The notes under the pieces were generated by a model. The model did no database searches. It was not told the origin of the DNA and saw only the letters and a list, made by a program, of their open reading frames with translations. Source: Clostridia bacterium (GTDB lineage: Bacteria > Bacillota > Clostridia > Christensenellales > Borkfalkiaceae). From it: DNA of 64,000 nucleotides. Numbering within the stretch: the first letter of the stretch is position 1; every line of letters starts with the position of its first letter. Shown here piece by piece: positions 9,617 to 51,411 of the stretch. The translations under genes and the position numbers were made by a program. The DNA lies in the NCBI GenBank assembly GCA_021202395.1, contig JAJQDC010000044.1, positions 137 to 64,136 on the forward strand, written 5' to 3'.

Positions 9617-11155
9617 TTACCCGATTGAAATATTGCCGCAGTTCTTTTTAATTATTGTATCGCCTTCTACGCCTTCAAACGTAACGTTTTTAAGCGTAAC
9701 CGACTTTACGTTGTCTATATAAATGCCTTCTTTGCAGTAGTCGCGTACAAATTCAAGCATAGCGGGCTTTGCGGGCTTAGCGTCTGCCTTAAAGCCGAAA
9801 TGCACGTTTTCTAACGTAATGCTGCCTATGGGCTGTTCTACAAGCCCGTCAAAGTAAGCGCACATACACTCGCAGTCTTCGCAGTCTATATCCTTAAACA
9901 GGAACTCGCCTATGTAGGGCGTGGTGTCGTCTACAGGTTTGGCTTCACGCGACCATACCGCTTCGGTATGCCCGTCGGGGTCGCAGAAGTAGTACATGTT
10001 TACCACAAGGGGCGTTATTACGTTTTCCATCTTGATATTTTCAAACTTAACGCCGTCTATTATAGCTTCCTTGCCCCTGCCGCGGCGCGTTTTGATACGC
10101 AGCCCCCTGTCGGTATGGCGGAAAAGGCACTGGCTTACGGTAAGGTTTTTTATACCGCCGCTCATCTCGCTGCCCAATACTATCGCACCGTGCCCGTCCT
10201 GGAACAGGTTGTTGCGCAGCGTATGGTGGTTAGCCGGCGTGTGGTATGTCTTAGCCATATAAATTTTACCCGCTTTAATTGCAACGCAGTCGTCGCCCAC
10301 GCTGAACACGCAGCCGACTATATCTACCTTGTCGCAGCTTTCGGGGTCAAGCCCGTCGGTATTGGGGCCTGTATAAGGGTTCTGTACTTTTACGTCGTAG
10401 AACCCAAGGTTATCAGAAAAGAAGGGATGCAGGTTCCACGCACCTGAATTTTTGCAGGTTACGCCGTGGAATACTACGTTGTTGCACTGGTTTAAAAATA
10501 CCAGGCGGGGGCGGGCAACCTTCCTGCCCTTGGGCGTAGCCCACCACGTAGAGTTATCTGCATTGCCGTTTATCGTGCCTTCGCCGACAATTTTTATATT
10601 TTTCTGGCGGAAGGCAGAAACAAAAGACTGGTGGCAATCCCAGGGATCCCCCTCCCACGAAGCCATTACAACTTCTTTGCCGCCTTCGTATATACGTGCG
10701 GGGATGTAGGGGTAATCTTCTTCTTTAACGCTGCCAAGAAGGGTTGCACCCTTGGCAAGTTCAAGCGTTATATCGCTCTTTAAAACAATGGGGCGGGTAT
10801 AGTATGTACCTGCGGGGACATACACCCTGCCGCCTGCGGGGCAGCTGTCTATAGCCATCTGGATGTAGTAAGTATCGTCCGTTACGCCGTCTCCCTTTGC
10901 GCCCAATGCTTTTAAATCTACTACTGCAGATTCCTTTTCCGTATGGAAATAAAGCGAGCTGTCTTCGCAGGATACGGTAACTACATATTCCGTATCAGGC
11001 GTAAGGTTGAATAAAGAGAATACGTTTGCATCCGATTCAGCGGCTTTTTCGCCGTTTAAAAACACGGTGTATTTGCCGCAGGGGTTGTAATAGGGGTTGG
11101 TATTGTCAAATTCAAAGCACGCCGACGTGCCTGAAGCAAAAAGTTTTTTAAGCAT
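9617..11155 (-). CDS. Polygalacturonase (GH28), intact copy
   Basis: 512 aa. All four GH28 signature blocks are present: GPNTDGLDPE, GDDCVAIKAG, GHGAIVLGSE and RGLRIKTRRGRG. No signal peptide was seen. The ATG overlaps the stop of the upstream gene by 8 nt. Confidence 0.85.
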   Translation of the reverse strand: MLKKLFASGTSACFEFDNTNPYYNPCGKYTVFLNGEKAAESDANVFSLFNLTPDTEYVVTVSCEDSSLYFHTEKESAVVDLKALGAKGDGVTDDTYYIQMAIDSCPAGGRVYVPAGTYYTRPIVLKSDITLELAKGATLLGSVKEEDYPYIPARIYEGGKEVVMASWEGDPWDCHQSFVSAFRQKNIKIVGEGTINGNADNSTWWATPKGRKVARPRLVFLNQCNNVVFHGVTCKNSGAWNLHPFFSDNLGFYDVKVQNPYTGPNTDGLDPESCDKVDIVGCVFSVGDDCVAIKAGKIYMAKTYHTPANHHTLRNNLFQDGHGAIVLGSEMSGGIKNLTVSQCLFRHTDRGLRIKTRRGRGKEAIIDGVKFENIKMENVITPLVVNMYYFCDPDGHTEAVWSREAKPVDDTTPYIGEFLFKDIDCEDCECMCAYFDGLVEQPIGSITLENVHFGFKADAKPAKPAMLEFVRDYCKEGIYIDNVKSVTLKNVTFEGVEGDTIIKKNCGNISIG

Positions 11156-11909
11156 TTTCCACCTCGCTCACTTTCTTTTCCTTCACTTTTTTTATTAATT
11201 TTTTTATTAAAAAGACTATCAGGTCTTTTATGCCGATAAAAATCATATCTACTATCAGGCAGAACACGCCGAACAAAAGCGGCTCTACGCCTGCGTAAAT
11301 TCCGATTATGTCGAGCAAATAATACATTGCCCCGACAAAGAAAACAACTACCAGATAGTAAATTATATTGGTAAGGATAGTCCAGAACTGCTTGAACGGG
11401 AAGGGAAACATCATATAATTGTTAAATTCCTTCTTGTCCGATTCCATCATTCTGAAAATGGGGTTGACCATGCAGTCTACTATAATACCCATAACCACGC
11501 CGCAGATGAAGTACAAATCTAACGTAGCGGCATCAGACAGATCTCCGCTGTCGTCTACAAACAATGCACCGATTGCCATAAATACAAAGTAGCACACAAC
11601 GCCAAAGAACCAGAATTTTATAAATGAAGCGCTCAGCCACTTAGGTATGCGTGAAAGTTTATCGCGCTTGTACGGGTCAAATTCCTTCTTCTTTTTAGAT
11701 CTTTTTTTGTGTTTGCCGTCTTCGTCTACATCGTCTTCTTCGCCCGTTATTTCGGCGATGTTCATTGTAGGCACGGGTGTGGTTTCGTCTGCCTCCCCTT
11801 TTAAGGCGGCAACGAGCTCATCCATCTCTTTGGTTTTTAAGTCGTAAAAGTCTTCTATATTAGTTTCTTTGGGTTTGGGTTTGTAGTTACTCTTATTCTT
11901 TTTAGCCAT
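11148..11909 (-). CDS. Small 4-TM membrane protein (253 aa), uncharacterised
   Basis: Long charged N-terminus (K/E/D-rich), then four hydrophobic helices and the acidic C-terminal tail KKVSEVENA. Translationally coupled to GH28. Confidence 0.6.
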   Translation of the reverse strand: MAKKNKSNYKPKPKETNIEDFYDLKTKEMDELVAALKGEADETTPVPTMNIAEITGEEDDVDEDGKHKKRSKKKKEFDPYKRDKLSRIPKWLSASFIKFWFFGVVCYFVFMAIGALFVDDSGDLSDAATLDLYFICGVVMGIIVDCMVNPIFRMMESDKKEFNNYMMFPFPFKQFWTILTNIIYYLVVVFFVGAMYYLLDIIGIYAGVEPLLFGVFCLIVDMIFIGIKDLIVFLIKKLIKKVKEKKVSEVENA

Positions 11910-11927
11910 TTTGTTCCTTTTTTAAAA

Positions 11928-11957
11928 ATAACCGACAAAAATTAATTTGCCGGTTAT
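11928..11957 (-). terminator. Intra-operon hairpin (possible attenuator or partial terminator)
   Basis: On the minus strand: ataaccg-N16-cggttat followed by ttttaaaaaa. It lies in the 89-nt gap between the 209-aa and 253-aa genes. An identical copy is at 32110..32139. Confidence 0.35.
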
Positions 11958-11998
11958 TATCAAATGTAATTTACTATCGGCATTGAAAAACAATGCTA

Positions 11999-12628
11999 TT
12001 AATCTGCATCCTGCAAGTCGATTTCGCCAACGTTGCCGGCAGCAGATTCTACTTCTTTCCTTGTGTTGATCTTCATAAGAAGTTTTCTCCACAAAGGTAA
12101 TGTTGCAAGAAGAACTGCGCCAATAGCAAGCAATACTATATGTACTATAGCGATTGCAAGCGAAGCGGTATCTGCACTGGCATAAGGCAATTTAGAAACA
12201 TCGTTTATCGCTCTTAATCCTGTGATTTCGTTATAGAAAACTATATCAAAGAATATAAGCATTGCGGTAAATACGTATGTTACTACCATCATGGGTATAC
12301 TTGCTTTTTTGTGCTTGGGGAATATACGCATATAAGCTACTATTGCAAGTAACGAAAACAGCGTGCATCCGAATACGCAAAGAGCAGACCATGTCTGGTC
12401 GTTACCATAGTTCTGTGTAACGCATTTAGAAAAATTGGTAAGCGCTACAAGGTAAACTACGCAGGCAACTAAATAGAAAACAAACGGAATGTTCTGAGGT
12501 TTTCTTTTAAGGTTAACTGTTTGTTTGCGGAGCCACTCCTTAAAACCGCCTTTAGACTTCTTTACCTTTGCGGGCTTTGCTTCGGGCTGTTCAACTTCGG
12601 GCTGCAATACATTTTCATTTTCTGCCAT
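11999..12628 (-). CDS. Small 4-TM membrane protein (209 aa), uncharacterised
   Basis: Basic N-terminus, four hydrophobic helices and the acidic tail GEIDLQDAD. RBS ggtgaggtg. Starts 8 nt after the ATPase stop. Confidence 0.6.
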   Translation of the reverse strand: MAENENVLQPEVEQPEAKPAKVKKSKGGFKEWLRKQTVNLKRKPQNIPFVFYLVACVVYLVALTNFSKCVTQNYGNDQTWSALCVFGCTLFSLLAIVAYMRIFPKHKKASIPMMVVTYVFTAMLIFFDIVFYNEITGLRAINDVSKLPYASADTASLAIAIVHIVLLAIGAVLLATLPLWRKLLMKINTRKEVESAAGNVGEIDLQDAD

Positions 12629-12636
12629 AATTCACC

Positions 12637-13701
12637 TCACCTTATCGCCTGTGTAGTTTCTTTATCAAAGAAGTGCATTCTGTCAGATTCGAAACCGATT
12701 GTGATTTCGTCGCCGTACTTGTAATGGCACCACTCAGGGAACTTGCAGACAACTATTTTTCCGTTGATTTTGCCGTGAACCAGGGTATTCATACCAAGGT
12801 TTTCGTTGTTGTCAACTTTAAGGGGAACGTTACCTTCGCGCGTGATATTTTCGGGGCGGACGCCAAGAATTACTTCTTTGCCTTCGTATTCCTGTAAAAG
12901 GGTTTGCTGCTCTTCGGTTAAAGGATATTCAAACCATTCAGATACGAATTTGTCGCCTTCTACCTTGCCTTCTATCATGTTCATGGGGGGTAAGCCTATG
13001 AATGTAGCAACAAAGGTATTTGCGGGGTAATCGTACAGCTCTATGGGTTTACCAATCTGCTGAACATGCCCCATACTCATGCACACAATCCTGTCGGCAA
13101 GCGTTAAAGCTTCCGTCTGGTCGTGGGTAACGTACATTATCGTTGCGTTAAGCTTTTTGTGTAAAAGCATTATCTCCCTTCTCATAGAGCCGCGCAGCTG
13201 TGCGTCAAGGTTAGAAAGCGGTTCGTCAAACAGGAATACTTTGGGGTTACGTACTATTGCACGGCCCATAGCAACACGCTGGCGCTGGCCGCCTGAAAGC
13301 TGGCGGGGCTTTTTGTTGAGCTGGGGTTTAAGATCAAGGATTTCTGCAGCCGCCATAACTTTGCGGTGGATAACCTCTTTCTTTTCTTTACGAAGGGTAA
13401 GCGAAAATGCCATGTTTTCGTAAATGGTCATATGGCCGTACAGAGCGTAGTTCTGGAAAACCATGGCTATGTCTCTGTCTTTGGGGGGCAGACGGGTGCA
13501 ATCTTTGCCGTCTATTATAAGATTACCGTTAGATATATCTTCAAGCCCCGCTACCATACGGAGTGTAGTAGACTTGCCGCAGCCGGAAGGGCCTACAAGT
13601 ACTATAAGTTCACCGTCGTGAATGTCAAGGTTGAAATCGAATACAGCCTGGACATTGCCGTCGTAAATTTTATCTACGTGCTGGATATTAACTTCAGGCA
13701 T
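12637..13701 (-). CDS. ABC sugar-importer ATP-binding protein (MsmX/MalK-like), copy 1 of paralog A
   Basis: Walker A GPSGCGKST, signature LSGGQRQRVAMGRA, Walker B VFLFDEPLSNLD, H-loop YVTHD, and a C-terminal MalK-type regulatory domain. I moved the start to ATG 13701 (MPEVNIQ, AGGAGGTG RBS) instead of 13731. Confidence 0.85.
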   Translation of the reverse strand: MPEVNIQHVDKIYDGNVQAVFDFNLDIHDGELIVLVGPSGCGKSTTLRMVAGLEDISNGNLIIDGKDCTRLPPKDRDIAMVFQNYALYGHMTIYENMAFSLTLRKEKKEVIHRKVMAAAEILDLKPQLNKKPRQLSGGQRQRVAMGRAIVRNPKVFLFDEPLSNLDAQLRGSMRREIMLLHKKLNATIMYVTHDQTEALTLADRIVCMSMGHVQQIGKPIELYDYPANTFVATFIGLPPMNMIEGKVEGDKFVSEWFEYPLTEEQQTLLQEYEGKEVILGVRPENITREGNVPLKVDNNENLGMNTLVHGKINGKIVVCKFPEWCHYKYGDEITIGFESDRMHFFDKETTQAIR

Positions 13702-14290
13702 TTGCCACCTCCTGTGCGTCCTTTTCGTCAAGGTCCTTTAATGCAGCCTCTACCGAAACGGAACCTTCATCAATGGCTTTGTTGAATTTTTCAAGCTTTC
13801 TTGCGCGGGTGTAACCGAATATAGCAGAAGCTACAAGGCATGCAGCGCTGAGCACAAGGAATATAATCATCACAGCTGAAAATTCACCTTTCTGCATTGT
13901 GTGCCAGAAGAAATATGTATAAATATCGCCGTCTGTTGTTGTTGTGTTTAAAACTTTGATAGGATAATAGAATATCCTTATAATCTGAACTACTGCAAGA
14001 GCCAAAAGCGTAATGCTGTACTTCCAGTTATAAGCTCTAATTCCTTCTTCTGCAAGCATTGTAACAAGTAAGAAGCAAAGGTTTACCACAACGGATATAC
14101 CTATTGTAATTGTATTGAATGCCGTAACGTTTACGCTATAGAATACCATAAAGTATAAACATTCAAACACAAGGCTTAAAAGAGCAAAGTTTGCAGCAGT
14201 TTTGTTGCGCTTATAGCGCATAACGTCTGTCTGAATTATCTGCTCGCTTGTTTCGGGCATAGCAGACATCTGGGAGAGTTTATTTTCCAT
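13694..14290 (-). CDS. Small 4-TM membrane protein (198 aa), uncharacterised
   Basis: Four hydrophobic helices and the acidic tail DEKDAQEVANA. Its stop overlaps the ATPase start (ATGCCTGA). The AGGAGG RBS lies inside the end of the preceding gene. Confidence 0.6.
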   Translation of the reverse strand: MENKLSQMSAMPETSEQIIQTDVMRYKRNKTAANFALLSLVFECLYFMVFYSVNVTAFNTITIGISVVVNLCFLLVTMLAEEGIRAYNWKYSITLLALAVVQIIRIFYYPIKVLNTTTTDGDIYTYFFWHTMQKGEFSAVMIIFLVLSAACLVASAIFGYTRARKLEKFNKAIDEGSVSVEAALKDLDEKDAQEVANA

Positions 14291-14293
14291 AGT

Positions 14294-14893
14294 TTACGCT
14301 ACCTCCTGAACTTCGGATACGTTCTGTCCGTTAGCAAGAAGTTCTTTTTCGCCCTTCATAAGCTTAATTTTCCAGACAAGGTTGTAAGCAAGCGCAGCTG
14401 CGTCTAAAAGCACTATTACCGCAAGCACATAACCAAGATAATAAATTGTCTGGTTGTCGCCGTAAAGCCTTGCAGAACCGTCTGCCCAGTTTGCAAGCCC
14501 ATCCCAGTCAACTTCGGAAAGACCTACCTGAACAGAAGCGGTAAGCGCTATGCAAACAATAGCCCATACTACGCAGTAACCGATTGCTATACCTACCGTA
14601 ATGTAGTTGGATATGTAATAATTGCGCCTTTTGTTACTTGCAAATATGTAACATGCAACTATTACAAGTACAAATATTATTCCCAGCCATAAAAGTATGT
14701 CGTTATAATCTTGTGCCAGCCAATAAACATTTTCTGCACCGTAAGGGTCTTTCTTATTTGAATAAGCAGACGTTACGCGCGCAAGATATGTTATCGCACC
14801 CGTGCAAAAGCCGAAGGCGTATACAATGGTAAGCGCAGCTATAACAAGCGAAACCGTGAATAATATTTTTTGAAACCGCATTTGAGTTTTCAT
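14294..14893 (-). CDS. Small 4-TM membrane protein (199 aa), uncharacterised
   Basis: Four hydrophobic helices and the acidic tail QNVSEVQEVA. There is a 3-nt gap to the next gene. Confidence 0.6.
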   Translation of the reverse strand: MKTQMRFQKILFTVSLVIAALTIVYAFGFCTGAITYLARVTSAYSNKKDPYGAENVYWLAQDYNDILLWLGIIFVLVIVACYIFASNKRRNYYISNYITVGIAIGYCVVWAIVCIALTASVQVGLSEVDWDGLANWADGSARLYGDNQTIYYLGYVLAVIVLLDAAALAYNLVWKIKLMKGEKELLANGQNVSEVQEVA

Positions 14894-14924
14894 ATCATTT
14901 CCCCAAATCGTAATGTTTTACCGT

Positions 14925-14948
14925 GGCGCCCGCCCGCAAGCGGGCGCC
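14925..14948 (-). promoter_or_regulatory. GC-rich hairpin just downstream of the binding-protein gene
   Basis: Perfect 9-bp stem ggcgcccgc pairs with gcgggcgcc, with a 6-nt loop and no adjacent U-tract. Its position matches the mRNA-stabilising or partial-terminator hairpins often found after SBP genes. An identical copy is at 35107..35130. Confidence 0.4.
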
Positions 14949-14993
14949 GCGTAAACATATTTAATTTTTATTATTTTTTTGTAGTTTTAACGA

Positions 14994-17690
14994 TTAGAGC
15001 AAGAAGCTGATATAATCGTCATAGTATCCGCTGATGTCAGCCCATGCTTCCTGCATGTATGCTACATATGTGCTGAGATTGTAAGAGTTATTAAGAAGGT
15101 CTATACAAGCCTGAGCCGTTGCAGGGAGTGTAACTGATTCAAAGTACGTAGGCTGGTAACCATGACCAGATGTAAGGCCGTAGTATGTGATATCAATGTA
15201 GAAGTTGGTTGAGTTGCTTGAGCTTGATGCAAATACGGTGTTATCAAGGTCGTCTGCATTGTTGCTTATCCAGTTTGCAACGTCGTTTGCATAAGGAAGG
15301 GTTGAAGTAACTTCGGTGTACCAGTAGCCCTTGCCGTTATCGGAACCTACCTGCTGATATACGTGAGCGATAGTGCCGTTGGTAAGGCCTGCTGCTACGA
15401 TGCTTGCACCGTTGATACCCTGCTGTGATGTGCACTGATATTCAAATGCCTGCAGTTTGTTACCTATAGGAAGGCAAGCGCCTATCATGTAACGTGCATA
15501 GTTGGTGTAGCTTCTTACGGCTGATTTTGCAAGCTGGCTCTGAGCTGTGCCGTTTACGCTCTTGCCGTAGTAGAATGCAAGGTTAGAATTTGTAACGGTA
15601 GGATACTGTTTGCCCTTGTAGTATGTACCTGTGTAAAGCTTGTTGTTGTAGCAGAAGTACTGAGAAGCATAGTCGCTGTTGATATAGTACTGGCCGCCGA
15701 CCATTGTTGCAACGCTGCTGATGCTTACGTTTGTAACTTCGGTTGCGTACCACCAGCCGTCGTCAGACGTACCTGTGTAATCGGATGTAGCGTCTGTGCA
15801 GTTGTTGGTAGAAGACTGTGTACCAAAGCTCATAAGTATCTGGCCGTCGTTAGAATAGAAGTAATCTACAAATGCAAGAACTGCTGCAAGTTTTTCGGGA
15901 TCGTTTTCTACAGATGCTCTGGGAATAGCTGCTGCAGAAGACTTAACTGAACGCCAGCTTTCGGTGAAGCGCATGTACTTGTAGTCGCCGTCGTAGTCGT
16001 AAGATATACCGTCTACGTTAGCCTTTGTAGATGTGCTGCCGTCATCCCACTTAGAAACGGGTGTAACTATAGGTGCATAGTTGTAACCGTCTTCTATCTG
16101 GCCGGAAGCAAGACCCATATCGGTGAAGCCGCCGGTTGCGGTCTGTGTCTGAACATAGTCATACTGCATTAAAGCTTCGCATGTGCCGGATTTATAGTAA
16201 CTGTTACTATCAGATGCTTTTACGCCTGATGTATCATCTGCGTTGTATAAACCTTCCTGAGTCATCTTGTGCATCTTATCAAGAGCTTCGTAGCTGTCTA
16301 AGTCTGCACGTGCGTTCTGAAGGTCGCCGTTTTCATCTACATAAGTATATGTGTAACGTGATTCAAGGCCGCGCACGCCGTAAAGTTCGCCTGCAAGGTT
16401 GAACATGTTGTTCATACGCTGAGCTGTTGACTGCCTGCCGGTAAGGCCGTATACAAGGGTATTATCGGTATATGTGCCGCCGTTTGAATATGTGTTAAGG
16501 TTGGTTATGTTGTAGCAGCATACGCAGCGCATCATAGCAACCAACAGGTCTACGTCCCATGCAGCGTCATAGCCGTTGAATACGTCTGAACGTGTGCTGT
16601 AGTATGTATTGCCGTTAGAATCAAGATATGCAACGTCTACATAAGCCTGAAGTATGCTGGTGAGCTGTGCGCCCGTAGCTTCGCCGCTTGTAGCGTTGAT
16701 AGCTGCGTTCTGAAGGTCTACGATGTTGCCGCTTGTAAGGTTGCCAACAGTAACGCCTGCAGCGGTAAGGGCTTTGCCGAGTGCAGTTGTGCTGTCATTT
16801 GCAGCTTCAAGAGCTTTGTCGTAGCTAACAGTAATGGTAACTGTTTCGTCTTCATCATCGGGGTCGGTGCTTTCTATCCACCAGCTGCCCGTTGTACCCA
16901 TAAATGATTCGCAGGAAGCTTCGGTAGATGTATAACCGTAACCTGAGTTGTTAACTTTAGCAGCTTTAGCTTCTACCTGGTCTTTGAATGTAAGCGTGTC
17001 AGAAGGCTGTGTGGTGCTGTCAAGTATAACTGACATCCAGTTCTTTTTAGCAAGAACGTAGTCTTCTATATCGTCGTTACCATCAAAGTAAGGCATGTAG
17101 TAGATAGCACCTGTATCAGTATCTGATGTCAGGGACATGTATACGATGGGGTTATCTGTAAGGAACTTTTTAAAGTTGGGCATATAGTCAAGATAGAGCG
17201 AAAGGTCAAGGAACTGATCGCTGCTTGCCGATGCCTGTGTTGTAATGGTGCTTGTGCCGCCGGTTACAACATTGTAGTTGTTCAGCACGCCTGTAGATAA
17301 GTTGGTTGTTATCTGTTCTGTATCAGACATGTTGGTGTAGCTGTCGGTAAGCGTTACGTCAAGCACTTCCTGAAGACCCTGCCATGCGGGTTTGAGTGAG
17401 CCGTTGGAATATTCAACGCCGTCGGGCATTGCTACGGTACCTGTAAAGTTACCTGATGTATAGGCTATGTTTGCAGGCATATCCGTTGCTTTGTAACCTA
17501 CGTTCATGTTAAGTTCTATACCGGAAGTATAGGAAAGGTTGCCGTCATCATCAGTGCTGACTTCAAGTACTTCCTGGCTGGCGGAAAGCACCTTCAGCGT
17601 CCTGGTGTTACATGCTGTAACGCTAAGGCACATAGAGCTTGCCAGCACAAGACTTACTACGGCAATCGCAACTTTTTTTGTCTTGTTCAT
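14994..17690 (-). CDS. Very large extracellular solute-binding lipoprotein of the ABC importer
   Basis: 898 aa. Signal peptide plus lipobox (MCLSVTAC). It directly follows the two permease genes and contains an SBP-like segment, GAIYYMPYFDGNDD. It is far longer than the usual ~450-550-aa LplA-type binding proteins. RBS aaggag. Confidence 0.6.
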   Translation of the reverse strand: MNKTKKVAIAVVSLVLASSMCLSVTACNTRTLKVLSASQEVLEVSTDDDGNLSYTSGIELNMNVGYKATDMPANIAYTSGNFTGTVAMPDGVEYSNGSLKPAWQGLQEVLDVTLTDSYTNMSDTEQITTNLSTGVLNNYNVVTGGTSTITTQASASSDQFLDLSLYLDYMPNFKKFLTDNPIVYMSLTSDTDTGAIYYMPYFDGNDDIEDYVLAKKNWMSVILDSTTQPSDTLTFKDQVEAKAAKVNNSGYGYTSTEASCESFMGTTGSWWIESTDPDDEDETVTITVSYDKALEAANDSTTALGKALTAAGVTVGNLTSGNIVDLQNAAINATSGEATGAQLTSILQAYVDVAYLDSNGNTYYSTRSDVFNGYDAAWDVDLLVAMMRCVCCYNITNLNTYSNGGTYTDNTLVYGLTGRQSTAQRMNNMFNLAGELYGVRGLESRYTYTYVDENGDLQNARADLDSYEALDKMHKMTQEGLYNADDTSGVKASDSNSYYKSGTCEALMQYDYVQTQTATGGFTDMGLASGQIEDGYNYAPIVTPVSKWDDGSTSTKANVDGISYDYDGDYKYMRFTESWRSVKSSAAAIPRASVENDPEKLAAVLAFVDYFYSNDGQILMSFGTQSSTNNCTDATSDYTGTSDDGWWYATEVTNVSISSVATMVGGQYYINSDYASQYFCYNNKLYTGTYYKGKQYPTVTNSNLAFYYGKSVNGTAQSQLAKSAVRSYTNYARYMIGACLPIGNKLQAFEYQCTSQQGINGASIVAAGLTNGTIAHVYQQVGSDNGKGYWYTEVTSTLPYANDVANWISNNADDLDNTVFASSSSNSTNFYIDITYYGLTSGHGYQPTYFESVTLPATAQACIDLLNNSYNLSTYVAYMQEAWADISGYYDDYISFLL

Positions 17691-17774
17691 TTTATTCTCC
17701 TTATTTTTATAAAAATCTTTTTATAATATAAACCCCGAACTTAAGGCTTATATACTGATTGGGTTTTTGGGTGG

Positions 17775-17945
17775 ATAAGGGTTTGCCTTACCCTGTTTGG
17801 CTTCCCCTTGAGGGGAAAGCAAGATTTACTTTTTCGGGTTGGAGATCTCTCCGCTACGGTCGAGATGACAGGCGGGCGTTGCCGCCTGTACAGCCCCGCA
17901 GGGCTGTCATTTCGAGTGGAGCGTAGCGCAATCGAGAAATCTATT
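17775..17945. repeat. Hairpin repeat modules inserted between the permease and binding-protein genes
   Basis: Contains ttggcttccccttgaggggaaagcaag and ggtcgagatgacaggcgggcgttgccgcctgtacagccccgcagggctgtcatttcgag...gagaaatct. These are the same families as at 1765 and 6600. An identical copy is at 37957..38127. Confidence 0.6.
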
Positions 17946-17950
17946 CCTTA

Positions 17951-18958: not shown

Positions 18959-18973
18959 ACATCAAATTCCCCC

Positions 18974-20053: not shown

Positions 20054-20183
20054 AAGTTCCCTCCATATCACTTAAAAATATAAGTAATTATTTGTAAGAG
20101 CGGCTGTTCGGGCTTTCCTGCCCGCGTTACCGCGTTTTACCATAGTAAAAAATTTAATAAAAGCATAATGCGGGCAAACGAGC

Positions 20184-34472: not shown

Positions 34473-34475
34473 AGT

Positions 34476-40235: not shown

Positions 40236-40365
40236 AAGTTCCCTCCATATCACTTAAAAATATAAGTAATTATTTGTAAGAGCGGCTGTTCGGGCTTTCC
40301 TGCCCGCGTTACCGCGTTTTACCATAGTAAAAAATTTAATAAAAGCATAATGCGGGCAAACGAGC

Positions 40366-41064: not shown

Positions 41065-41246
41065 ACTTTATCGTAAGCAACAAAATAACATTGAAAATTT
41101 TGTAATTTACCGATGCCATTGTGTTACATTTTCACATTTAGCTTTCTTATTATAGCATACACTTTTTTAAAAATCAATACCTTTTTTAATTGTTTCACAA
41201 AAAAATTTATGATAAAATTAAAATACATTTAAATGAGGTACCCGTT

Positions 41247-42224: not shown

Positions 42225-42383
42225 AAGAGCAATAAATCGGGCATATGTGGGCATCAATCAAATAAAATACGGTAAACGGGTACGTTATTTCGTGCCCGTT
42301 TTTTATGATTGGGCGGCATATATGCCCCGATTAATGCAAAAACGCCGCACGGCATGCCGTGCGGCGTTTTACGTTTAATTTAA

Positions 42384-43796
42384 TTAAAAGCCGAAGTATT
42401 CCTGGGCGTTGTTGTAGCAAACGTTTTCTACAATCTTGCCAAGAACGTCAAGCTGGCTTTCGGGGTACTGTCCGCTTTCTACCAGGTTGCCGAGCATGTT
42501 GCAGAGTATTCTTCTGTAATACTCGTGGCGGGGATATGCAAGGAACGAGCGGCTGTCGGTAAGCATACCTACGGACTGAGCCACAAGGCCTACCTGCATA
42601 AGCGTTTCAAGGTTCTGCTTCATGCCGTCCTGCTGGTCAAGGAACCACCAAGCCGTGCCTACCTGCACCCTGCCCTTTACGCCTTCTTTCTGGAAGCAGC
42701 CCGAAAGAACGGTAAGCGCATAGTTGTCGCGGGGGTTAAGACAATAGAGTATTGTCTTGGGCAGTGCGTCTGCCATGTCAAGCGCACCCAGAAGCGCCGA
42801 AAGTTTAGACATGTAAACCTGGTCTTCTATGGCGTCGAAACCGGTGTCGGGACCGATCTTTTCAAGCATGGTCTTGGAGTTGTTGCGCAGCGCGCCGATG
42901 TGGTACTGCTGTACCCATCCGTACTTTGCATACTCTTTGCCAAGGAACAAAAGAACGTAACCCTTGTACTTATCCTGCTCTTCGTCGCTTACGTGTTCGC
43001 CCTTCATGCCTTTAAGGAATATGGCGTTGGCTTCTTCGTACGTAGCGGGAGCATAGTGTACCACGTCAAGGGCGTGGTCAGAAACTTTTGAGCCCATTTT
43101 GTCGAAGAATGCAATCCTTTCTGCAAGAGCATTGCAAAGGTCTTCAAGCGAATTGATGGGTTTGCCCACCACGCCTGCCAGCTGGTTTACCCAGCTTGCA
43201 AACCACGAAAGCTCTACGTTTATAGCTTTGTCGGGGCGGAACGCGGGGCGTACCTTGACTTTTAAGGTGGGGTCCGCATTCATTTTGGCGTGCCATTCAA
43301 GCGAGTCAACGGGGTCGTCGGTAGTGCATACCGTTTTAACGTTGAACTTGTACATCATTTCGCGCGCGGTCAAAGTTTTTAACTTTTCGTTGGCTTTATC
43401 CCAGATCTTTTTAGCGTTTTCGGGGCATATTATGTCGTCTATATCAAAGTAACGCTGCATTTCAAGGTGAGACCAGTGATAGAGCGGGTTGCCTACGAAG
43501 TAGGGCATGGACTCTACAAACTGAAGATATTTTTTGTAATCGTCGTCGGGGCCGGATATTGAATCTTCTTCATATCCCCTTGCGCGCAGCGAACGCCACT
43601 TGTAGTGGTCGCCGTACCTGTCGCCTGCACCCAGCCATACTTCGGCAAGGTTTCTGAACTGCTTGTCCTCGTAAATTTCCTTGGGCTGAAGGTGGCAGTG
43701 ATAGTCTATTATAGGCATCTTTTCTGCATGTTCATGATAGAGCTTTTTAGCCGTCTCTGTTTCAAGCAGAAAGTCTTTATCCATAAATTTTTTCAT
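42384..43796 (-). CDS. uxaC: Glucuronate/galacturonate isomerase, copy 2
   Basis: Translation identical to 22202..23614. Confidence 0.9.
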   Translation of the reverse strand: MKKFMDKDFLLETETAKKLYHEHAEKMPIIDYHCHLQPKEIYEDKQFRNLAEVWLGAGDRYGDHYKWRSLRARGYEEDSISGPDDDYKKYLQFVESMPYFVGNPLYHWSHLEMQRYFDIDDIICPENAKKIWDKANEKLKTLTAREMMYKFNVKTVCTTDDPVDSLEWHAKMNADPTLKVKVRPAFRPDKAINVELSWFASWVNQLAGVVGKPINSLEDLCNALAERIAFFDKMGSKVSDHALDVVHYAPATYEEANAIFLKGMKGEHVSDEEQDKYKGYVLLFLGKEYAKYGWVQQYHIGALRNNSKTMLEKIGPDTGFDAIEDQVYMSKLSALLGALDMADALPKTILYCLNPRDNYALTVLSGCFQKEGVKGRVQVGTAWWFLDQQDGMKQNLETLMQVGLVAQSVGMLTDSRSFLAYPRHEYYRRILCNMLGNLVESGQYPESQLDVLGKIVENVCYNNAQEYFGF

Positions 43797-45268
43797 TATA
43801 AGGTTACTCCTGTTTTGAATATAGCTAATTCACGTGTATTGTTAATTTCGTTCTTGGTAGGCTGCCCGTTTACCGTTGCAACCACAAGGTCTATTAATCT
43901 TTCAAGCTGGGTATCAAAGTCGGTATCAAGTATGGCACCTGCATTGAAGTCTATCCAGTTGCTCTTTTTTGCCGCAAGCTCTTTGTTTGTAGCAATCTTT
44001 ATGGTGGGAACGAACCCGCCGAAAGGCGTACCCCTGCCCGTGGTGAACAGCACAAGGTGGCAGCCTGCAGCACCAAGATTGGTTACGGCGCACATATCGT
44101 TGCCCGGCCCGTTTAACAGGTTGAGCCCTTTGGCGGTAACATATCCGTCATCGAACACTACGTCCTGCACTGCGGAAGAACCTGATTTTTGCGTGCAGCC
44201 CAAAGACTTGTCTTCCAGCGTGGTTATGCCGCCCGCCTTGTTGCCGGGGGAAGGATTTTCGTAAACCACCTGCCCGTTGCGCCTGAAATAGTCTTTAAAG
44301 TCGTTTATAAGTTTAACGGTCTTGTTAAAGGTCTCTTCGTCTTTGGCCCTGTTCATCAAAAGCTGTTCTGCGCCGAACATTTCGGGTACTTCGGTGAGCA
44401 CCGTAGTGCCGCCGCATGCCACTATATAGTCGCTGAAAAGCCCTACCAGGGGGTTAGCCGTAATGCCCGAAAGCCCGTCGGAACCGCCGCATTTAAGCCC
44501 GACTTTAAGGCAGGACATATCCTTTTGCACCCGCTTGTCGTTCTTTATCACGTCGGCAATCTCTTTAACGAGCTTTACGCCCGTAGCGATTTCGTCGTCT
44601 TCTTCCTGGCATATCATAAATTTAACGCGGCTTTCGTCTACCTTGCCAAGCGTTTCGCGGAAGGCGGACATCTGGTTATTTTCGCATCCGAGACCTATTA
44701 CCAGCACGCCGCCCGCATTGGGATGGCGCACCATCTTCTGCAATATAAGCTTAGTGCGCTCGTGGTCGTCGCCCAGCTGTGAGCAGCCGTAGGGATGTGT
44801 GTATACGTAAACGCCGTCAAACCCTTCTGTGCCGTACTGCGCCTTATATGTGTCTGCTATAACCTTAGCCTGGCCGTTTACGCAGCCTACGGTGGGTATT
44901 ATCCACAATTCATTGCGGATACCTACGTTACCGTTTGCCCTTTCGTATACGTTTACTTTGCGGGGAGTTACCTTTTTTACGGGGCACTCTACCTTGTTAT
45001 AGGTATATTCAAGATTTTCAGAAAGATTGGTATGCACGTTATGGGTGTGCACATGCGTTCCTTTGGGGATATCTGCCGTTGCACACGCAATACTGTTGCC
45101 GTATTTTATAATGTTTTCGCCTTTGGCAATGTCGCGCAGGGCAAACTTGTGCCCCTTTGTAATATCCTGTGCAAGGGTAACCCCTTCGTGCGTTTCGCCG
45201 CACTTAAGGTCGCGCAGGGCAACGGCAACATTGTCAAGCGGATTTATTATTATCGTTGACTTAGCCAT
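43796..45268 (-). CDS. uxaA: Altronate dehydratase, copy 2
   Basis: Translation identical to 23614..25086. Confidence 0.85.
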   Translation of the reverse strand: MAKSTIIINPLDNVAVALRDLKCGETHEGVTLAQDITKGHKFALRDIAKGENIIKYGNSIACATADIPKGTHVHTHNVHTNLSENLEYTYNKVECPVKKVTPRKVNVYERANGNVGIRNELWIIPTVGCVNGQAKVIADTYKAQYGTEGFDGVYVYTHPYGCSQLGDDHERTKLILQKMVRHPNAGGVLVIGLGCENNQMSAFRETLGKVDESRVKFMICQEEDDEIATGVKLVKEIADVIKNDKRVQKDMSCLKVGLKCGGSDGLSGITANPLVGLFSDYIVACGGTTVLTEVPEMFGAEQLLMNRAKDEETFNKTVKLINDFKDYFRRNGQVVYENPSPGNKAGGITTLEDKSLGCTQKSGSSAVQDVVFDDGYVTAKGLNLLNGPGNDMCAVTNLGAAGCHLVLFTTGRGTPFGGFVPTIKIATNKELAAKKSNWIDFNAGAILDTDFDTQLERLIDLVVATVNGQPTKNEINNTRELAIFKTGVTL

Positions 45269-46709
45269 TTACAAACCCTTCCACTGCTTTATTCATACCG
45301 TTCTTGTCTATGTCTTCAAGATAAGCGGCTACCTTTGCGGTAATTTCGGGATGTATGGTATTCATATCCATATCCCACGCTTCTTCCCACGCAAGAACTT
45401 TTTTAGCCATTGCGGCATAGTCGCCGTTGAAGTCTGCCCACAGTCTGTGCCAGAATGCAAGGTAAGCAGGGTCGTCTTTAAGAGCTATTTCTTCGTTGCC
45501 TCTCTTGCCTTTGTGGAATTCTATCATTGCCGCCAAAGAGAACAGAACGTGTTCGGGAAGGGTGCCCTTTATGCGTACATAGTCTAAAAGGGTGGGCAGT
45601 ATCCTTGTTTTAAACTTGGTTGTAGAGTTCAAAGCTATAGACATAAGCTCATGCCTGATGTAGGGGTTCTGGTACCTTTCAAGCACGCTGTTGGCAAAGT
45701 CTACCATTTCATTCTGGGGCAGGTCTATTGTGGGGTTAACTTCGTTGAATACAAAGTCGCGCACATACTTGCCGATTATGGGATCGTTTACAGCTTCGCC
45801 TACCGTGTCTATACCGCAAAGGTAAGCAACGGGAACCATAGCCGTGTGAGAACCGTTGAGTATCTTTACTTTACGCTGTTTGTAAGGTTTGATGCTGTCG
45901 GCAAAAATTACGTTCAGCCCCGTTGAATCTGCGGGTAAAACCTTCTGTATATAGGGTTCCTTTTTAAGCACCCAAAGGTGGAAAATTTCGCCCTTTACAA
46001 CGTTGTTGTCTATATAGCCCGTCTCTTCCCTTATGGCGTCTATTTCTGCCTTGGGGTAACCGGGAACTATCCTGTCTACAAGCGTGCTGGTAAAGTGGTT
46101 TGCCGTCTGCATCCATTTAATGAACTTTTCGTCCATGTTGTTTATTTTTGCAAGCTCGGTAAGCACTTTGTACAGCTCGTCGCCGTTGTTATCTATAAGT
46201 TCGCAGGGAACTATGGCAAGACCTTTGTCCATAGCGCCGCCGAATGCGTCGTACCTTCTTTTTAACAGGGCAAGGAGCTTGCCGGGGAAGGACTTGGGCG
46301 TAACCGTAAGGTCGGTGTCGGTGGGATCAAGCGCAATGCCTGCTTCGGTTGTGTTAGAAATTATTATCTGTAAATCTTCGCTTTCGCCGTATTTAAGATA
46401 TTTTTCGTAATCGGTAAAGGGGTTAACGCAGTCGCCTATTACGTCTATAATGCGGCTTGACTTAACCTTTTTGCCCTTATCTATGCCTTCAAGGCGCACG
46501 GTGTAAAGCCCGTCCTGCACTTCAAGTTCCTTTACCCTGCCCAAAGGCATGGGCTGTACAACTACTACTCCCGCGTCTATCGCGCCCTTATCGTTAAGAT
46601 CCTGAAGTATCCATTCTATAAATGCACGCAGGAAGTTACCTTCGCCGAACTGCATTATCTTTATCTTTCTTTCAGGCTTATTGTAAATTTTTTTGCTAAG
46701 CTGTTCCAT
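45261..46709 (-). CDS. uxaB: Tagaturonate reductase, copy 2
   Basis: Translation identical to 25079..26527. Confidence 0.8.
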   Translation of the reverse strand: MEQLSKKIYNKPERKIKIMQFGEGNFLRAFIEWILQDLNDKGAIDAGVVVVQPMPLGRVKELEVQDGLYTVRLEGIDKGKKVKSSRIIDVIGDCVNPFTDYEKYLKYGESEDLQIIISNTTEAGIALDPTDTDLTVTPKSFPGKLLALLKRRYDAFGGAMDKGLAIVPCELIDNNGDELYKVLTELAKINNMDEKFIKWMQTANHFTSTLVDRIVPGYPKAEIDAIREETGYIDNNVVKGEIFHLWVLKKEPYIQKVLPADSTGLNVIFADSIKPYKQRKVKILNGSHTAMVPVAYLCGIDTVGEAVNDPIIGKYVRDFVFNEVNPTIDLPQNEMVDFANSVLERYQNPYIRHELMSIALNSTTKFKTRILPTLLDYVRIKGTLPEHVLFSLAAMIEFHKGKRGNEEIALKDDPAYLAFWHRLWADFNGDYAAMAKKVLAWEEAWDMDMNTIHPEITAKVAAYLEDIDKNGMNKAVEGFVNG

Positions 46710-46877
46710 ATATTAAAACTACCTCACGTTTATATTTATTTTGTTAAATTAAAAATTTTGCATAACAAACAGAGCTATGCGTAGTTACACATACCTTGCC
46801 TTATTGCATAAGGCGGTAATTTTTCAGTTTTAAGCAATGCGGGCGCAGCGCAACCGCGCTGCGCCTTGCAGTGTATA

Positions 46878-47996
46878 TCAGTGTCTTTTTATATCGGTTT
46901 CTACGGCAAGCTCTGTCTCTTTGTCGTACAGGTATGCGCTCTTGTAAGGAATGTTGAACACACACTCGGTATCCCTTTCGGGGGTATCGTGAGGGTTAAT
47001 TTTAAGTATAACGTTAACGCCGTCTACCGTTGCATATACGTTGGTGTTGTCGCCAAGGAGCTCGGTAAGTTCTACCTGAGAGCTGAACGTATAGCCGTCT
47101 TTAGGCGCTTTTTCGCCTTCTTTTACAAGGTTAACTGCTTCAGGCCTGAATGCAAATACAACTTCTTTGCCTTCAAGCGCTTCCACATCGTTAGCTATGG
47201 GCGAAATGTCAAGCGTGGTTTCTGATTCGCCGTCAAGCTTGAGCATGCCGCCTTCTACCTTGCCGTGAAGGAAGTTCATGGGAGGTTCGCCTATGAAGCC
47301 TGCAACGAACAGGTTGCGGGGATAGAAGTAAAGTTCAAAAGGTGTACCTACCTGCTGGACAACGCCCAGTTTCATAACTACTATCCTGTCTGACATCGTC
47401 ATAGCTTCGGTCTGGTCGTGGGTAACGTAAATGGTTGTTGCGCCTACGCCGCGGTGAATCTGCTTGATTTCGGAACGCATCGTAACCCTTTGCTTTGCGT
47501 CAAGGTTAGACAAAGGTTCGTCCATAAGGAAGATGTTAACCTTTCTTATAAGAACACGGCCTACGGCTACCCTTTGGCACTGGCCGCCGGAAAGCTGGCG
47601 GGGGAATCTTTCAAGGTAGTCTGTAAGCCCGAGTATTTTAGCAGTAGCCTGTACCTTTTCTTCGATTATGTCCGCATCGATGCCTTCGAGCATAAGGCCG
47701 AAAGCAAGATTTTCGTAAACGGTAAGGTGAGGGTAAAGAGCGTACGACTGGAATACCATCGCAATGCCCCTGTCCCTTGAAGACATCTGGTTTGCAAGCA
47801 CGCCGTCGATATAGAATTCGCCGGAAGTGATTTCTTCAAGGCCGGCTATCATACGAAGAGTCGTAGATTTGCCGCAGCCGGAAGAGCCTACAAGGCAGAT
47901 GAATTCGCCGTCCATTATTTCAAGATTGAAGTCGTGTACGGCATGGAATCCGTTAGGATACACTTTGTTAACGTCTTTTAATATAAGATGTGCCAT
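46878..47996 (-). CDS. ABC ATP-binding protein paralog B, copy 2
   Basis: Translation identical to 26696..27814. Confidence 0.85.
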   Translation of the reverse strand: MAHLILKDVNKVYPNGFHAVHDFNLEIMDGEFICLVGSSGCGKSTTLRMIAGLEEITSGEFYIDGVLANQMSSRDRGIAMVFQSYALYPHLTVYENLAFGLMLEGIDADIIEEKVQATAKILGLTDYLERFPRQLSGGQCQRVAVGRVLIRKVNIFLMDEPLSNLDAKQRVTMRSEIKQIHRGVGATTIYVTHDQTEAMTMSDRIVVMKLGVVQQVGTPFELYFYPRNLFVAGFIGEPPMNFLHGKVEGGMLKLDGESETTLDISPIANDVEALEGKEVVFAFRPEAVNLVKEGEKAPKDGYTFSSQVELTELLGDNTNVYATVDGVNVILKINPHDTPERDTECVFNIPYKSAYLYDKETELAVETDIKRH

Positions 47997-48063
47997 TTTT
48001 ATTTTCCCCTAAATTTAATTATCTTTATTTTTATATATAAGCCGCTTTATGCGGACATATTTT

Positions 48064-48933
48064 TTACCTTAAGTCTTGCGTACGTATGTTATCCATATCG
48101 TCGTACGCCTGGTTTTCGCCGCACATGCCCCAGATAAACGTGTAGTTCATGGTACCTACGCCGGTGTGGATAGACCAGCTGGGCGATATTACAGCCTGTT
48201 CGTTATGAAGGATGATGTGCCTTGTTTCCTGGGGGGTACCCATAAGGTGTATTACAGCCTGGTCTTCGGGTACTTCAAAGTACATGTATACTTCCATCCT
48301 TCTTTCGTGCGTGTGGCTGGGAAGGGTATTCCAAGAGCTGCCGGGGGCAAGTTCCGTCATGCCCATCGCAAGCTGGCAGCTTTCGCAAACGTCGCCGATG
48401 ATAAACTGGTTGATGGTGCGTTTGTTGATGCCTTCCATAGTGCCAAGGTGCCTTTGTACGCAGTAGCGTGTGCCTTCTTCGGGCTGTTTGCCTTCTACGG
48501 GTTTGGTGATTTTAACCGTAGGGTAAGACTTGTGGGCAGGGCTGGAATTTATATAGAACTTAGCGGGGTTCTTAGCGTCGTCAGAAGCAAAAACAATTTC
48601 TTTTGTTCCCATACCGATGTATATACCCTCTTTAAACCCTATGTGGTAAACCTTGCCGTCAAGAGTAATGGTGCCTGCCCCGCCGATGTTTATAACGCCC
48701 ATTTCTCTTCTTTCAAGAAAGTAGTCGGTTGCAAGCTCTTTAAACGTGCCAAGCGAAAGCGTGCCTTTAACGGGCATTGCGCCGCCCGCAATAATTCTGT
48801 CCTGGTGGGAATATGTTAGAAGTATGTCGTCTGCTTCAAACAGTTTTTCTACCAGATATTTTTCTCTTAATTCCGCAGTGTCGTAGTGCTTGGAATCGTC
48901 GGGATGGTTTGCGTATCTAACGTCAAATTTCAT
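48064..48933 (-). CDS. kduI: 5-dehydro-4-deoxy-D-glucuronate isomerase, copy 2
   Basis: Translation identical to 27882..28751. Confidence 0.85.
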
Positions 48934-48978
48934 AAAAAAAGCTCCTTTATCATTACACGTGCAAATTCTTTTTTGAAT

Positions 48979-49208
48979 TGCTGTTCAAAAATCTTTGCTG
49001 CGATTTTTAAAGACAAACCATTCTCTGCTTTGCTTCGAATGTTTTTTCTTTCTTTTGCGCATTTGCCAGGGGCATAGATATTATATAATGCGCAAAATTC
49101 AATCTTTTACCTGAATATCAAGGGGTTTTGGGCATAACAAGTGAAGCCCAAAACTCATTATTATTTTTAATAAGCCGCAAATTGCTACGCAATTATGCGA
49201 ATTTTTAC
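48979..49208 (-). promoter_or_regulatory. Conserved upstream block of kduI, copy 2
   Basis: Duplicate of 28797..29026 (offset +20182). Confidence 0.5.
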
Positions 49209-49537
49209 TTATGTGCCGCCTCACTTGGCTGTCCGCGCGTTCGCGCGAGATCTTTCGACTACGCTCAAGATGACGAGTTTGGTCTGACGCTATAATACGG
49301 TTGAATTCTTTCAAATAAATCTACCTTATAGCGGCACAAAAGTCTATGTCATTGCGAGCGGTCTCTACCGCGTGGCAATCTCGCGAGTACTCGCGGATGG
49401 CGGAGCAACAACGCCACACAAGTTATTTAAAAATAATACGTCTATTCTTAAATAATTCTCCGCCTTTTCATTTAACAAAAACTCAAACGGCTACCCGTAT
49501 GTGCGGTAAGCCGCACATACGGACCGTTGGATTCAGT

Positions 49538-50383
49538 TTATACTTCGTTCCACTTTTCTCGCAGGAATGCGGAACAAGGTACTATATTTTCGCCCGTGGT
49601 GCCTTCAAGCACGAGCTTTGCGTTTTTGTCGTATGCCTTGATGCGCTTTAATATCGCATCAAAGTCAAAAACGCCCTTCCCCGGGGGAACCTGCTTTACC
49701 TTGTTTTCAGCTTCGTCAAACACGTAGTCCTTTATGTGGAACACGCATATTTTGCCTGCAAAGGTTTCAAGCCCCTCGTCTAAAATTTTAAGATAGTCTG
49801 CGTGGTTAGACGCGTCAAGATAATTGTAAATATCAAATATAACCTTTATATTTGGCAGGTTAATGCCGTCTATAGCGCGCTTAAGCGTCTGTACGTTGTA
49901 ACATACATGCCCTGCTGCGCCTTCCATACCGATATTTACACCCCTTTCCCCTGCAAATTCGGCAAGCTCCTTAAAGGTAGCCGTAACCCTTGAAAGCGCT
50001 TCTTCGGTGCGGTTTAAGGGGTTGTACGTCCACTTATCGTCGTTGAACGAACCCGTCTCCGAGCCGACTATATTGCAGCCAAGGTTTTTGCAGTATGTAA
50101 GGTATTCTTTAAAGACGGCAATGCCGTTTGCAACCTTTTCGGGGTTGGAGTGTACGGGGTTAAAGTAAGCGCCTATTAAGCCTACGTCTATGCCGTTTGC
50201 CCTTAAAGTATCCCCGATCCAACGGGAATTTTCTTCGTTGAGCTGGCCGGGCTGGTACTTCAGCTCGTCCATAAATTTATATGCAACAAGCTGTACCCCG
50301 TCTATGCCGCATCCCTTTACTCTGGCTACGGCGGGCTCTAACCCCCTTACGCCCAGGTCGTGCGTGCGGAACTCTATTTTCAT
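49538..50383 (-). CDS. Sugar-phosphate isomerase/epimerase (xylose-isomerase-like TIM barrel), copy 2
   Basis: Translation identical to 29356..30201. Here it is translationally coupled to the intact kdgK (TAATG overlap). Confidence 0.6.
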   Translation of the reverse strand: MKIEFRTHDLGVRGLEPAVARVKGCGIDGVQLVAYKFMDELKYQPGQLNEENSRWIGDTLRANGIDVGLIGAYFNPVHSNPEKVANGIAVFKEYLTYCKNLGCNIVGSETGSFNDDKWTYNPLNRTEEALSRVTATFKELAEFAGERGVNIGMEGAAGHVCYNVQTLKRAIDGINLPNIKVIFDIYNYLDASNHADYLKILDEGLETFAGKICVFHIKDYVFDEAENKVKQVPPGKGVFDFDAILKRIKAYDKNAKLVLEGTTGENIVPCSAFLREKWNEV

Positions 50384-51411
50384 TATCTCTGAACGCGGCC
50401 GCTGCCGTCGCCGCCGGCAAGAGCTTCTACTTCCTTGCGGGATACAAGGTTGAAGTCGCCGGGTATGGTGTGCTTAAGTGCAGATGCTGCAACGCCGTAT
50501 TCAAGTGCAGACTTAAAGTCTTTACCGTCAAGGAAGCCTGTTATAACGCCTCCGGCAAAGCTGTCGCCGCCGCCTACACGGTCTACGATGGGGCTGATCC
50601 TGTATGTCTTTGAATGATAGAATTCTTTGGTAGCTGCGCTGTAGATGCAAGCCGACCAGCCGTTGTCTGATGCGGAGTGGCTTACGCGGAGCGAGCTTAT
50701 AGCATACTTGAAGGGGAACTTAGCGCACATCTGCTCAAATATTGATTTGTAGCCCGCAAGTTCAAGTTCGCCTGAAGTTACGTCTGTATTGCCGGGTTTG
50801 AAACCTAATACAAGGTTAGCGTCTTCTTCGTTGCCGATGCAGACGTCTACATACTGCATTAAAGGAGTCATTATCTTCTGAGCCTTTTCAGAAGACCATA
50901 ATTTTTTACGGAAGTTAAGGTCAACCGAAACGATTACGTTGTGCTTTTTAGCAGCCTTTAAAGCGGCTTCGGTAAGTTTAGCGGCTGCGTCTGATACAGC
51001 GGGTGTAATGCCTGTGAAGTGGAACCAGTCAGCGCCTTCAAATATAGCGTCAAAATCGAAGTCTGCGGGTGTAGCTGTGGTTATAGAAGAGTGAGCCCTG
51101 TCGTAAACGACTTTAGAAGGACGCATAGAAGCGCCTGTTTCAAGGTAGTAGATACCAAGCCTTTCGCCGCATTTAGCGATGTGCTTTGTTTCTACGCCGT
51201 ATTTTCTTAAAGCGGCAATAGCACATTCGCCGAGTTCGTTGTCGGGAACTGCGGTTACAAATTCTGCTTCGTGGCCGTAGTTAGCGCACGAAACGGCTAC
51301 GTTGGCTTCGCCGCCGCCGTAGTTGATGTCGAACTCGTCGGCCTGGATGAACTTTTCATTGTTCGGGGTTGAAAGACGAAGCATTATTTCGCCCATAGTT
51401 ACGATTTTCAT
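50383..51411 (-). CDS. kdgK: 2-dehydro-3-deoxygluconokinase (PfkB family), single intact copy
   Basis: 342 aa. N-terminal GGGEANVAV block and the DRVGGGDSFAGG anion-hole/ATP motif. It is adjacent to the KDPG aldolase gene. Only its last 56 nt fall inside the duplicated unit. Confidence 0.85.
   Translation of the reverse strand: MKIVTMGEIMLRLSTPNNEKFIQADEFDINYGGGEANVAVSCANYGHEAEFVTAVPDNELGECAIAALRKYGVETKHIAKCGERLGIYYLETGASMRPSKVVYDRAHSSITTATPADFDFDAIFEGADWFHFTGITPAVSDAAAKLTEAALKAAKKHNVIVSVDLNFRKKLWSSEKAQKIMTPLMQYVDVCIGNEEDANLVLGFKPGNTDVTSGELELAGYKSIFEQMCAKFPFKYAISSLRVSHSASDNGWSACIYSAATKEFYHSKTYRISPIVDRVGGGDSFAGGVITGFLDGKDFKSALEYGVAASALKHTIPGDFNLVSRKEVEALAGGDGSGRVQR

Follow-up and report, generated by a model that had tools for sequence, protein, structure and literature searches.

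Evidence for a recent tandem duplication of a pectin/hexuronate segment, joined at a 9-bp microhomology, in an uncultured gut Clostridia bacterium

Known amplifications and the duplicated segment

Bacterial adaptation is thought to begin often with tandem amplifications that do not last long, and arrays of the heteroresistance type should disappear through homologous recombination where selection does not maintain them. To our knowledge, such amplifications have almost never been documented in uncultured gut organisms, as short-read metagenome-assembled genomes (MAGs) collapse them. Here we analyzed a 64,000-bp stretch of DNA from a Clostridia bacterium (contig JAJQDC010000044.1; hereafter the window), in which a 20,182-bp segment of a pectin/hexuronate locus is written twice. 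The adaptive amplifications of lac in E. coli are a close precedent: 31 sequenced junctions carried 4-15 bp of identity (Slack et al. 2006, PMC1428787). The window shares with them head-to-tail repeats in the range of roughly 10-30 kb, one novel junction, an identity found once at each parental site, and no need for an insertion sequence (IS) or a repetitive extragenic palindromic (REP) element. However, the lac cases were obtained by laboratory selection on an F' plasmid, comprised many copies and had their genetic requirements tested, whereas the present event lies in the chromosome of an uncultured gut anaerobe and was seen in metagenomes only. The short-homology, RecA-independent origin considered below is the mechanism proposed for the lac amplifications (PMC1428787).

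Two further systems are comparable. The BT1871 case (PMC10528517) is likewise a tandem duplication over a carbohydrate-use gene of a gut commensal, in a host-associated population; it was IS3-linked, confirmed by long reads and shown to affect fitness on melibiose/raffinose-type sugars, whereas the junction studied here is a 9-bp microhomology with no mobile element. The unstable amplifications behind antibiotic heteroresistance (review, PMC11721125) are also tandem arrays that raise dosage and are polymorphic within populations; they concern resistance genes, often flanked by IS or rrn repeats, and not a catabolic and transporter locus devoid of flanking repeats. The duplication is a new instance of a well-known type of event, the microhomology-joined tandem duplication or gene amplification, and its mechanism will not surprise a specialist. 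What is unusual is the uncultured host, the complete transport-plus-catabolism module, the polymorphism visible across public runs, and an array printed by a graph assembly.

We estimate at about 0.85 the probability that the window records a genuine, recent and segregating chromosomal tandem duplication, in at least two copies, of the 20,182-bp pectin/hexuronate segment in an uncultured gut Clostridia related to Candidatus Coproplasma. The features that define it are as follows.

10066..30247: unit copy 1, the downstream copy in transcription terms (nearly all genes on the minus strand), identical to copy 2
30248..50429: unit copy 2, the upstream copy in transcription terms, identical to copy 1
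30248..30256: novel junction, 9-bp microhomology CTTCCTTGC, with the kdgK tail on its left and the GH28 interior on its right; the sequence across it includes GGCAAGAGCTTCTACTTCCTTGCCCCTGCCGCGGCG
10066..10074: left parental 9-mer CTTCCTTGC, within GH28
50430..50438: right parental 9-mer CTTCCTTGC, within the last codons of kdgK
9617..11155, minus strand: intact GH28 polygalacturonase-like gene, 512 amino acids (aa), Pfam PF00295, NCBIfam PglA-like below cut-off, MCD8040857.1; spans the left breakpoint
50383..51411, minus strand: intact kdgK-like PfkB sugar kinase gene, 342 aa, single copy; Pfam, with NCBIfam KdgK below equivalog cut-offs
30201..31337, minus strand: chimeric open reading frame (ORF), 378 aa, in which GH28 residues 1-363 continue in the same frame into the final 15 residues of KdgK; its database entry is MCD8040874.1, named 'glycoside hydrolase family 28 protein'

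Direct comparison of 10066-30247 with 30248-50429 revealed 0 mismatches over 20,182 bp. At the offset of 20,182 the uninterrupted identity extended to 20,191 bp (10066..30256 = 30248..50438). Unique DNA lies on both sides of the repeat, 10 kb at 1-10065 and 13.5 kb at 50439-64000, so that the segment is present as head-to-tail direct copies between unique flanks, as a tandem duplication should be. An earlier note, made from the letters of this DNA, had claimed an apparently perfect 20,182-bp tandem repeat and had asked for a pairwise comparison; the comparison bears the claim out. The DNA comes from an NCBI MAG named "Clostridia bacterium" (locus tags LUF82_, proteins MCD8040852-MCD8040893), in which the source contig has 64,227 bp, and exact-sequence look-ups showed that the unit proteins were each deposited under two accessions, 17 apart.

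The left breakpoint falls within GH28 and the right one within the last 18 codons of kdgK. The 9-mer CTTCCTTGC occurs only three times in the window, at the two parental sites and at the junction. At random breakpoints an identity of at least 9 bp has a probability of 3e-5 by calculation and 7e-5 by simulation on the window sequence. The identity is thus present once at each parental site and longer than chance provides, as expected of a microhomology. Self-BLAST of the window revealed no other long repeat at or near the unit ends, and Pfam scans of all flanking and internal genes gave no IS, transposase or integrase. The lack of a long repeat, IS, rrn operon or site-specific recombinase at the ends separates this duplication from RecA-dependent or element-mediated ones. 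Two further points of the earlier note, a 9-bp microhomology joining the GH28 interior to the kdgK tail and borders inside genes with no IS, integrase or long repeat, were confirmed, the former by the 20,191-bp identity run and the 9-mer count, the latter by self-BLAST and Pfam.

In a single illegitimate event, the 9 bp of identity would have brought the kdgK 3' end and the GH28 interior together, likely by template switching during replication or by another short-homology, RecA-independent exchange between sister chromosomes. Such an event would leave intact GH28 and kdgK genes at the outer borders, create the in-frame chimera where the copies meet and double 16 intact genes; the mechanism, the consequences for expression and any selective benefit on pectin are inferred.

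The junction in independent assemblies

A junction of this kind could have been made by the assembler or by chimeric library molecules, the true locus being single copy everywhere. The MAG contig on record is just 64,227 bp long, short reads (SPAdes NODE names, 8-11x, in related MAGs) could not span a 20-kb repeat, and the perfect match of the two copies is itself suspicious. Three features indicate that we are probably dealing with a short-read graph assembly: related MAGs (JAJPXK, JAJQII), whose accessions bracket the JAJPYM accession of a conspecific MAG, carry SPAdes-style names of the form NODE_x_length_y_cov_8-11; the contig is short; and it ends in a repeat-dense region. If this is right, both copies are one graph edge walked twice, so that zero divergence is automatic and the copy number of two is the assembler's choice. 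The doubled dosage proposed earlier is a minimum, the copy number being at least two.

Logan assemblies (k=31) of public runs of the Sequence Read Archive (SRA) were searched by exact protein, and their contig ends were inspected. For a sample whose reads contain the junction, a fork of the de Bruijn graph is predicted at both unit ends. The unit contig should then start at 10066, the left flank end at 10065+30 = 10095, the unit end at 50438 (= 30256) and the right flank start at 50409. The predicted cut products are a GH28 of 363 aa, a 158-aa C-terminal fragment of GH28 and a 299-aa open-ended product of the TIM-barrel gene that follows kdgK.

Three of these four contig ends were examined, and all three matched to the base. 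Contig L022 of run SRR15221334 (12,121 bp) stopped exactly at 10066 (= 30248), with GH28 called as 363 aa; it spanned 12.1 kb of the unit in one piece with 1 mismatch. The left-flank contigs L025 (SRR15221334) and L024 (SRR15221329) stopped exactly at 10095 and carried the 158-aa fragment, while contig L023, common to two samples, stopped exactly at 30256/50438 with the 299-aa TIM-barrel product. These base-exact ends in SRR15221334 and SRR15221329 indirectly place the junction in the reads, independently of the assembler of the record. In four other runs, contigs 99.9-100% identical to the window crossed the breakpoints unbroken:

SRR15221327: left site crossed by L001 (14817..8492), right site by L003 (51519..49358)
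SRR15221326: left site crossed by L029 (11112..8393), right site by L002
SRR15221335: left site crossed by L030, right site by L004
SRR15221336: left site crossed by L031 (10194..8430), right-site contig not recovered

Judged from these contigs, two runs have the junction in their reads; in the four others, which carry the same strain, it is either missing or so rare that graph cleaning removes it.

As a control, we considered the contig ends common to all samples, at 22159/22186. They fall on a perfect 32-bp palindrome, AAAAACGCCGCACGGCATGCCGTGCGGCGTTTT, at 22157-22188 (= 42339-42370), between the convergent pectinesterase and uxaC genes, where it is likely a bidirectional terminator. These contigs hence end at graph features, and the coincidence with the palindrome led us to reject the breaks as evidence of rearrangement. 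A metagenome contig, LSQX01088180.1 (27588-33673), was the sole match to a 24-mer common to the junction and the left parental site; it agreed over exactly 24 nucleotides and was otherwise unrelated, and was set aside as a chance or very local match.

The pattern of forks bears directly on the possibility of an artefact, since a second assembler (Logan, k=31) breaks exactly at 10066, 10095 and 30256/50438 for two runs, whereas the other four show no such fork. Random chimeras are rare, are removed by graph cleaning and would not recur in two libraries, and no assembler joins on a 9-bp overlap. Circular concatenation is ruled out by the unique flanks, and the repeat does not reach the contig ends. 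An artefact is thus highly improbable. The earlier view of a genuine duplication, not an assembly or circular artefact, gains support from the base-exact breaks in two runs together with the unique flanks.

A single-copy chromosome accompanied by a separate 20,182-bp circle would yield an identical de Bruijn graph and identical contig breaks, the assembler having threaded the graph cycle into a tandem array. However, the ends of the unit lie inside GH28 and kdgK, and such a circle would carry no replication, partition, integrase or transposase function; the Pfam scans found no replication or partition gene encoded by the unit. Without replicon functions it could not be maintained in two runs at a depth high enough to pass graph cleaning. 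Moreover, a circle of this type normally pops out of an existing tandem duplication, which itself implies the chromosomal array. We regard a free circle as very unlikely.

Several points weigh against a chromosomal tandem duplication. The evidence consists of contig ends and fixes the copy number only as at least two. The two fork-bearing runs, SRR15221334 and SRR15221329, may not be independent biological samples; literature searches on the runs and accessions led to no study behind them, one paper citing SRR15221364, an accession close in number but unrelated. The contig graph alone fits a tandem array and a single-copy chromosome plus a 20,182-bp circle equally. The assembly method of the source is deduced, and the fourth predicted end, the right flank from 50409, lies outside the three ends examined.

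Ancestral state and age

The conspecific MAG GCA_021204945.1 (contig JAJPYM010000215.1, 38,729 bp), reconstructed over 37.4 kb from two loci, is fully collinear with the window at about 97% nucleotide identity; it contains the unit once, and its GH28 and kdgK genes are intact. By its protein numbering, this contig has 17 genes fewer in the interval from GH28 to the 1278-aa gene. In 12 of 12 sister-species MAGs the same transporter cluster was followed by intact GH28 and GH105 genes. A GH28 search of genome contigs retrieved relatives at 44-91% aa identity, and the nearest genomes were MAGs of uncultured Clostridia, among them Candidatus Coproplasma of bird faeces, with GH28 protein identities of 73-91%. 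The single copy in the conspecific MAG and in the 12 sister species indicates that the single-copy state is ancestral; a comparison with sister genomes had been called for in the earlier note, and it returned the single-copy layout throughout.

The two copies could nonetheless descend from an old duplication fixed in the lineage, diverged copies having been printed as identical by a collapsing assembler. In a graph assembly, as deduced from the contig naming, the copies are one edge and small differences are lost. However, the fork is missing from four runs that carry this strain at 99.9-100% identity, and the conspecific MAG is single copy. Divergence would also give bubbles or breaks inside the unit, whereas L022 runs unbroken for 12.1 kb with 1 mismatch. 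An old, fixed duplication is therefore hardly credible.

A recent origin of the duplication is supported by the polymorphism of its presence or absence among near-identical strains; as far as the assembled contigs tell, it postdates the very slight divergence of the SRR152213xx strains. The very recent event proposed earlier thus holds on the strength of this polymorphism, and not on that of zero divergence, which is a weak argument for a graph assembly.

Two large genes of the window also contain internal repeats. The 1033-aa fn3 protein (2109-5210, plus strand) is built of tandem repeats of about 606 bp (202 aa) with 83-91% identity, within 2435-4813, and its homolog in the conspecific MAG, at 831 aa, is exactly one 202-aa unit shorter, which suggests that the repeat number varies within the species. 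Similar internal repeats, of about 507 bp, were found in the 1197-aa Flg_new-repeat protein (56913-60506).

Gene content, expression context and significance

The unit comprises 16 intact ORFs, nearly all on the minus strand, the same list that had been drawn up before. Besides GH28, kdgK and the chimera, the genes are as follows.

11148..20882 (again 31330-41064), minus strand: transporter cluster, with p253, p209, p198, p199, p232, MalK-type ATPase A, an 898-aa lipoprotein and two BPD_transp_1 permeases
21008..22042 (again 41190-42224), plus strand: pectinesterase (Pfam)
22202..26527 (again 42384-46709), minus strand: uxaC, uxaA and uxaB (Pfam, NCBIfam)
26696..28751 (again 46878-48933), minus strand: MalK-type ATPase B and kduI (Pfam, NCBIfam)
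29356..30201, minus strand: xylose-isomerase-like TIM-barrel gene, copy 1, 3' of the GH28 chimera instead of kdgK
49538..50383, minus strand: xylose-isomerase-like TIM-barrel gene, copy 2

The presence of UxaC, UxaB, UxaA, KduI, KdgK and KdgA together with GH28, GH105/GH88-like and pectinesterase genes identifies a pectin/hexuronate locus; KduI and tagaturonate reductase exceed their NCBIfam cut-offs. Outside the unit and in single copy are the GH105/GH88-like gene, kdgA, two large secreted proteins, an AraC regulator and a short-chain dehydrogenase/reductase (SDR). The SDR (62684-63490, plus strand) scored 518 bits on the NCBIfam equivalog 'gluconate 5-dehydrogenase' (cut-off 369) and fell below the KduD equivalog cut-offs. 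The single-copy kduD of the earlier note is right as to copy number; as to name, the protein scores best as a gluconate 5-dehydrogenase, though it may have either activity.

The transporter cluster is of the ABC type but unusual in its make-up. Its lipoprotein has a lipobox ending in VTAC; it had no match in Pfam, NCBIfam or a PDB sequence search, and the label 'binding protein' comes from its context only. Five small multi-transmembrane proteins of 198-253 aa without a family are interleaved with the MalK-type ATPase and the two permeases. The order of the cluster is kept in the 12 sister species, the lipoprotein and the small proteins being just 35-66% identical.

The shared 9-mer codes for Lys-Glu in GH28 and kdgK alike, and the chimera ends in a stop codon that overlaps the TIM-barrel start codon (ATG), an arrangement identical to that of the parental kdgK-TIM pair. 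The final 149 residues of the GH28 beta-helix are missing from the chimera, which is probably inactive; the outer copies of GH28 and kdgK are both intact.

The upstream copy (30248-50429) is still in its native context, and the truncated GH28 chimera forms its end. Native upstream DNA is retained by 15 of the 16 duplicated genes, including the conserved leader 5' of kduI. The TIM-barrel gene of the downstream copy has lost its kdgK-proximal leader and would be translationally coupled to the chimera instead of kdgK. A promoter and terminator scan around the junction did not exceed the shuffled expectation and gave no convincing terminator between the chimera and the TIM-barrel gene, a result uninformative on read-through.

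Directly 5' of kdgK and of kduI, both on the minus strand, we observed a direct repeat of about 250 bp with 86.5% identity (51448-51695 and 28780-29027, the latter = 48962-49209). It holds a hairpin, TTTTGGGC...GCCCAAAA, followed by several TGCGCA-type motifs, is also found in the conspecific MAG and has no match in Rfam. It looks like a terminator-plus-promoter/operator cassette shared by two pectin-pathway operons.

The non-coding DNA of about 2 kb between the 1197-aa gene and the SDR gene (60850-62680), together with 63640-64000, is a mosaic of short modules of 30-170 bp with 77-100% identity. Related pieces lie at 1644-1903, 6588-6729, 17865-17942 and 29049-29259, copies being scattered in other intergenic gaps of the pectin locus. 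Several modules are hairpins, for instance GTCATTGCGAGCG...CGGCAATGAC and CCTTCCCCCATAAAAGGGGAAGG. On sequence grounds they could be a family similar to REP elements or miniature inverted-repeat transposable elements (MITEs), or upstream elements specific to a regulon; Rfam detected no RNA family in the window.

A perfect repeat of 20 kb is expected to be lost readily by homologous recombination. The polymorphism among near-identical strains is compatible with such instability and with RecA-independent formation. That the repeat is nevertheless abundant enough to be assembled in two runs suggests one of two histories: it arose very recently and spread by drift or hitch-hiking, or a higher dosage has been selected, as might happen on pectin. 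An adaptive amplification in nature, in which the whole module for pectin-oligomer import and hexuronate use was doubled or more under dietary pectin and was kept at high frequency in some hosts or samples by selection against its instability, is conceivable, and we advance it tentatively, as less probable than not.

Two lessons concern method. Perfect identity between copies in a graph assembly is uninformative on their age, and breakpoint-exact contig ends in assemblies of the Logan type test a structural variant across samples without reads. For the organism, the duplication covers a coherent module of transporter, pectinesterase and hexuronate pathway, which makes a dosage benefit on pectin a concrete and testable hypothesis. 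If adaptive amplification is true, the locus would provide a tractable natural example in a non-model anaerobe, found from public short-read data.

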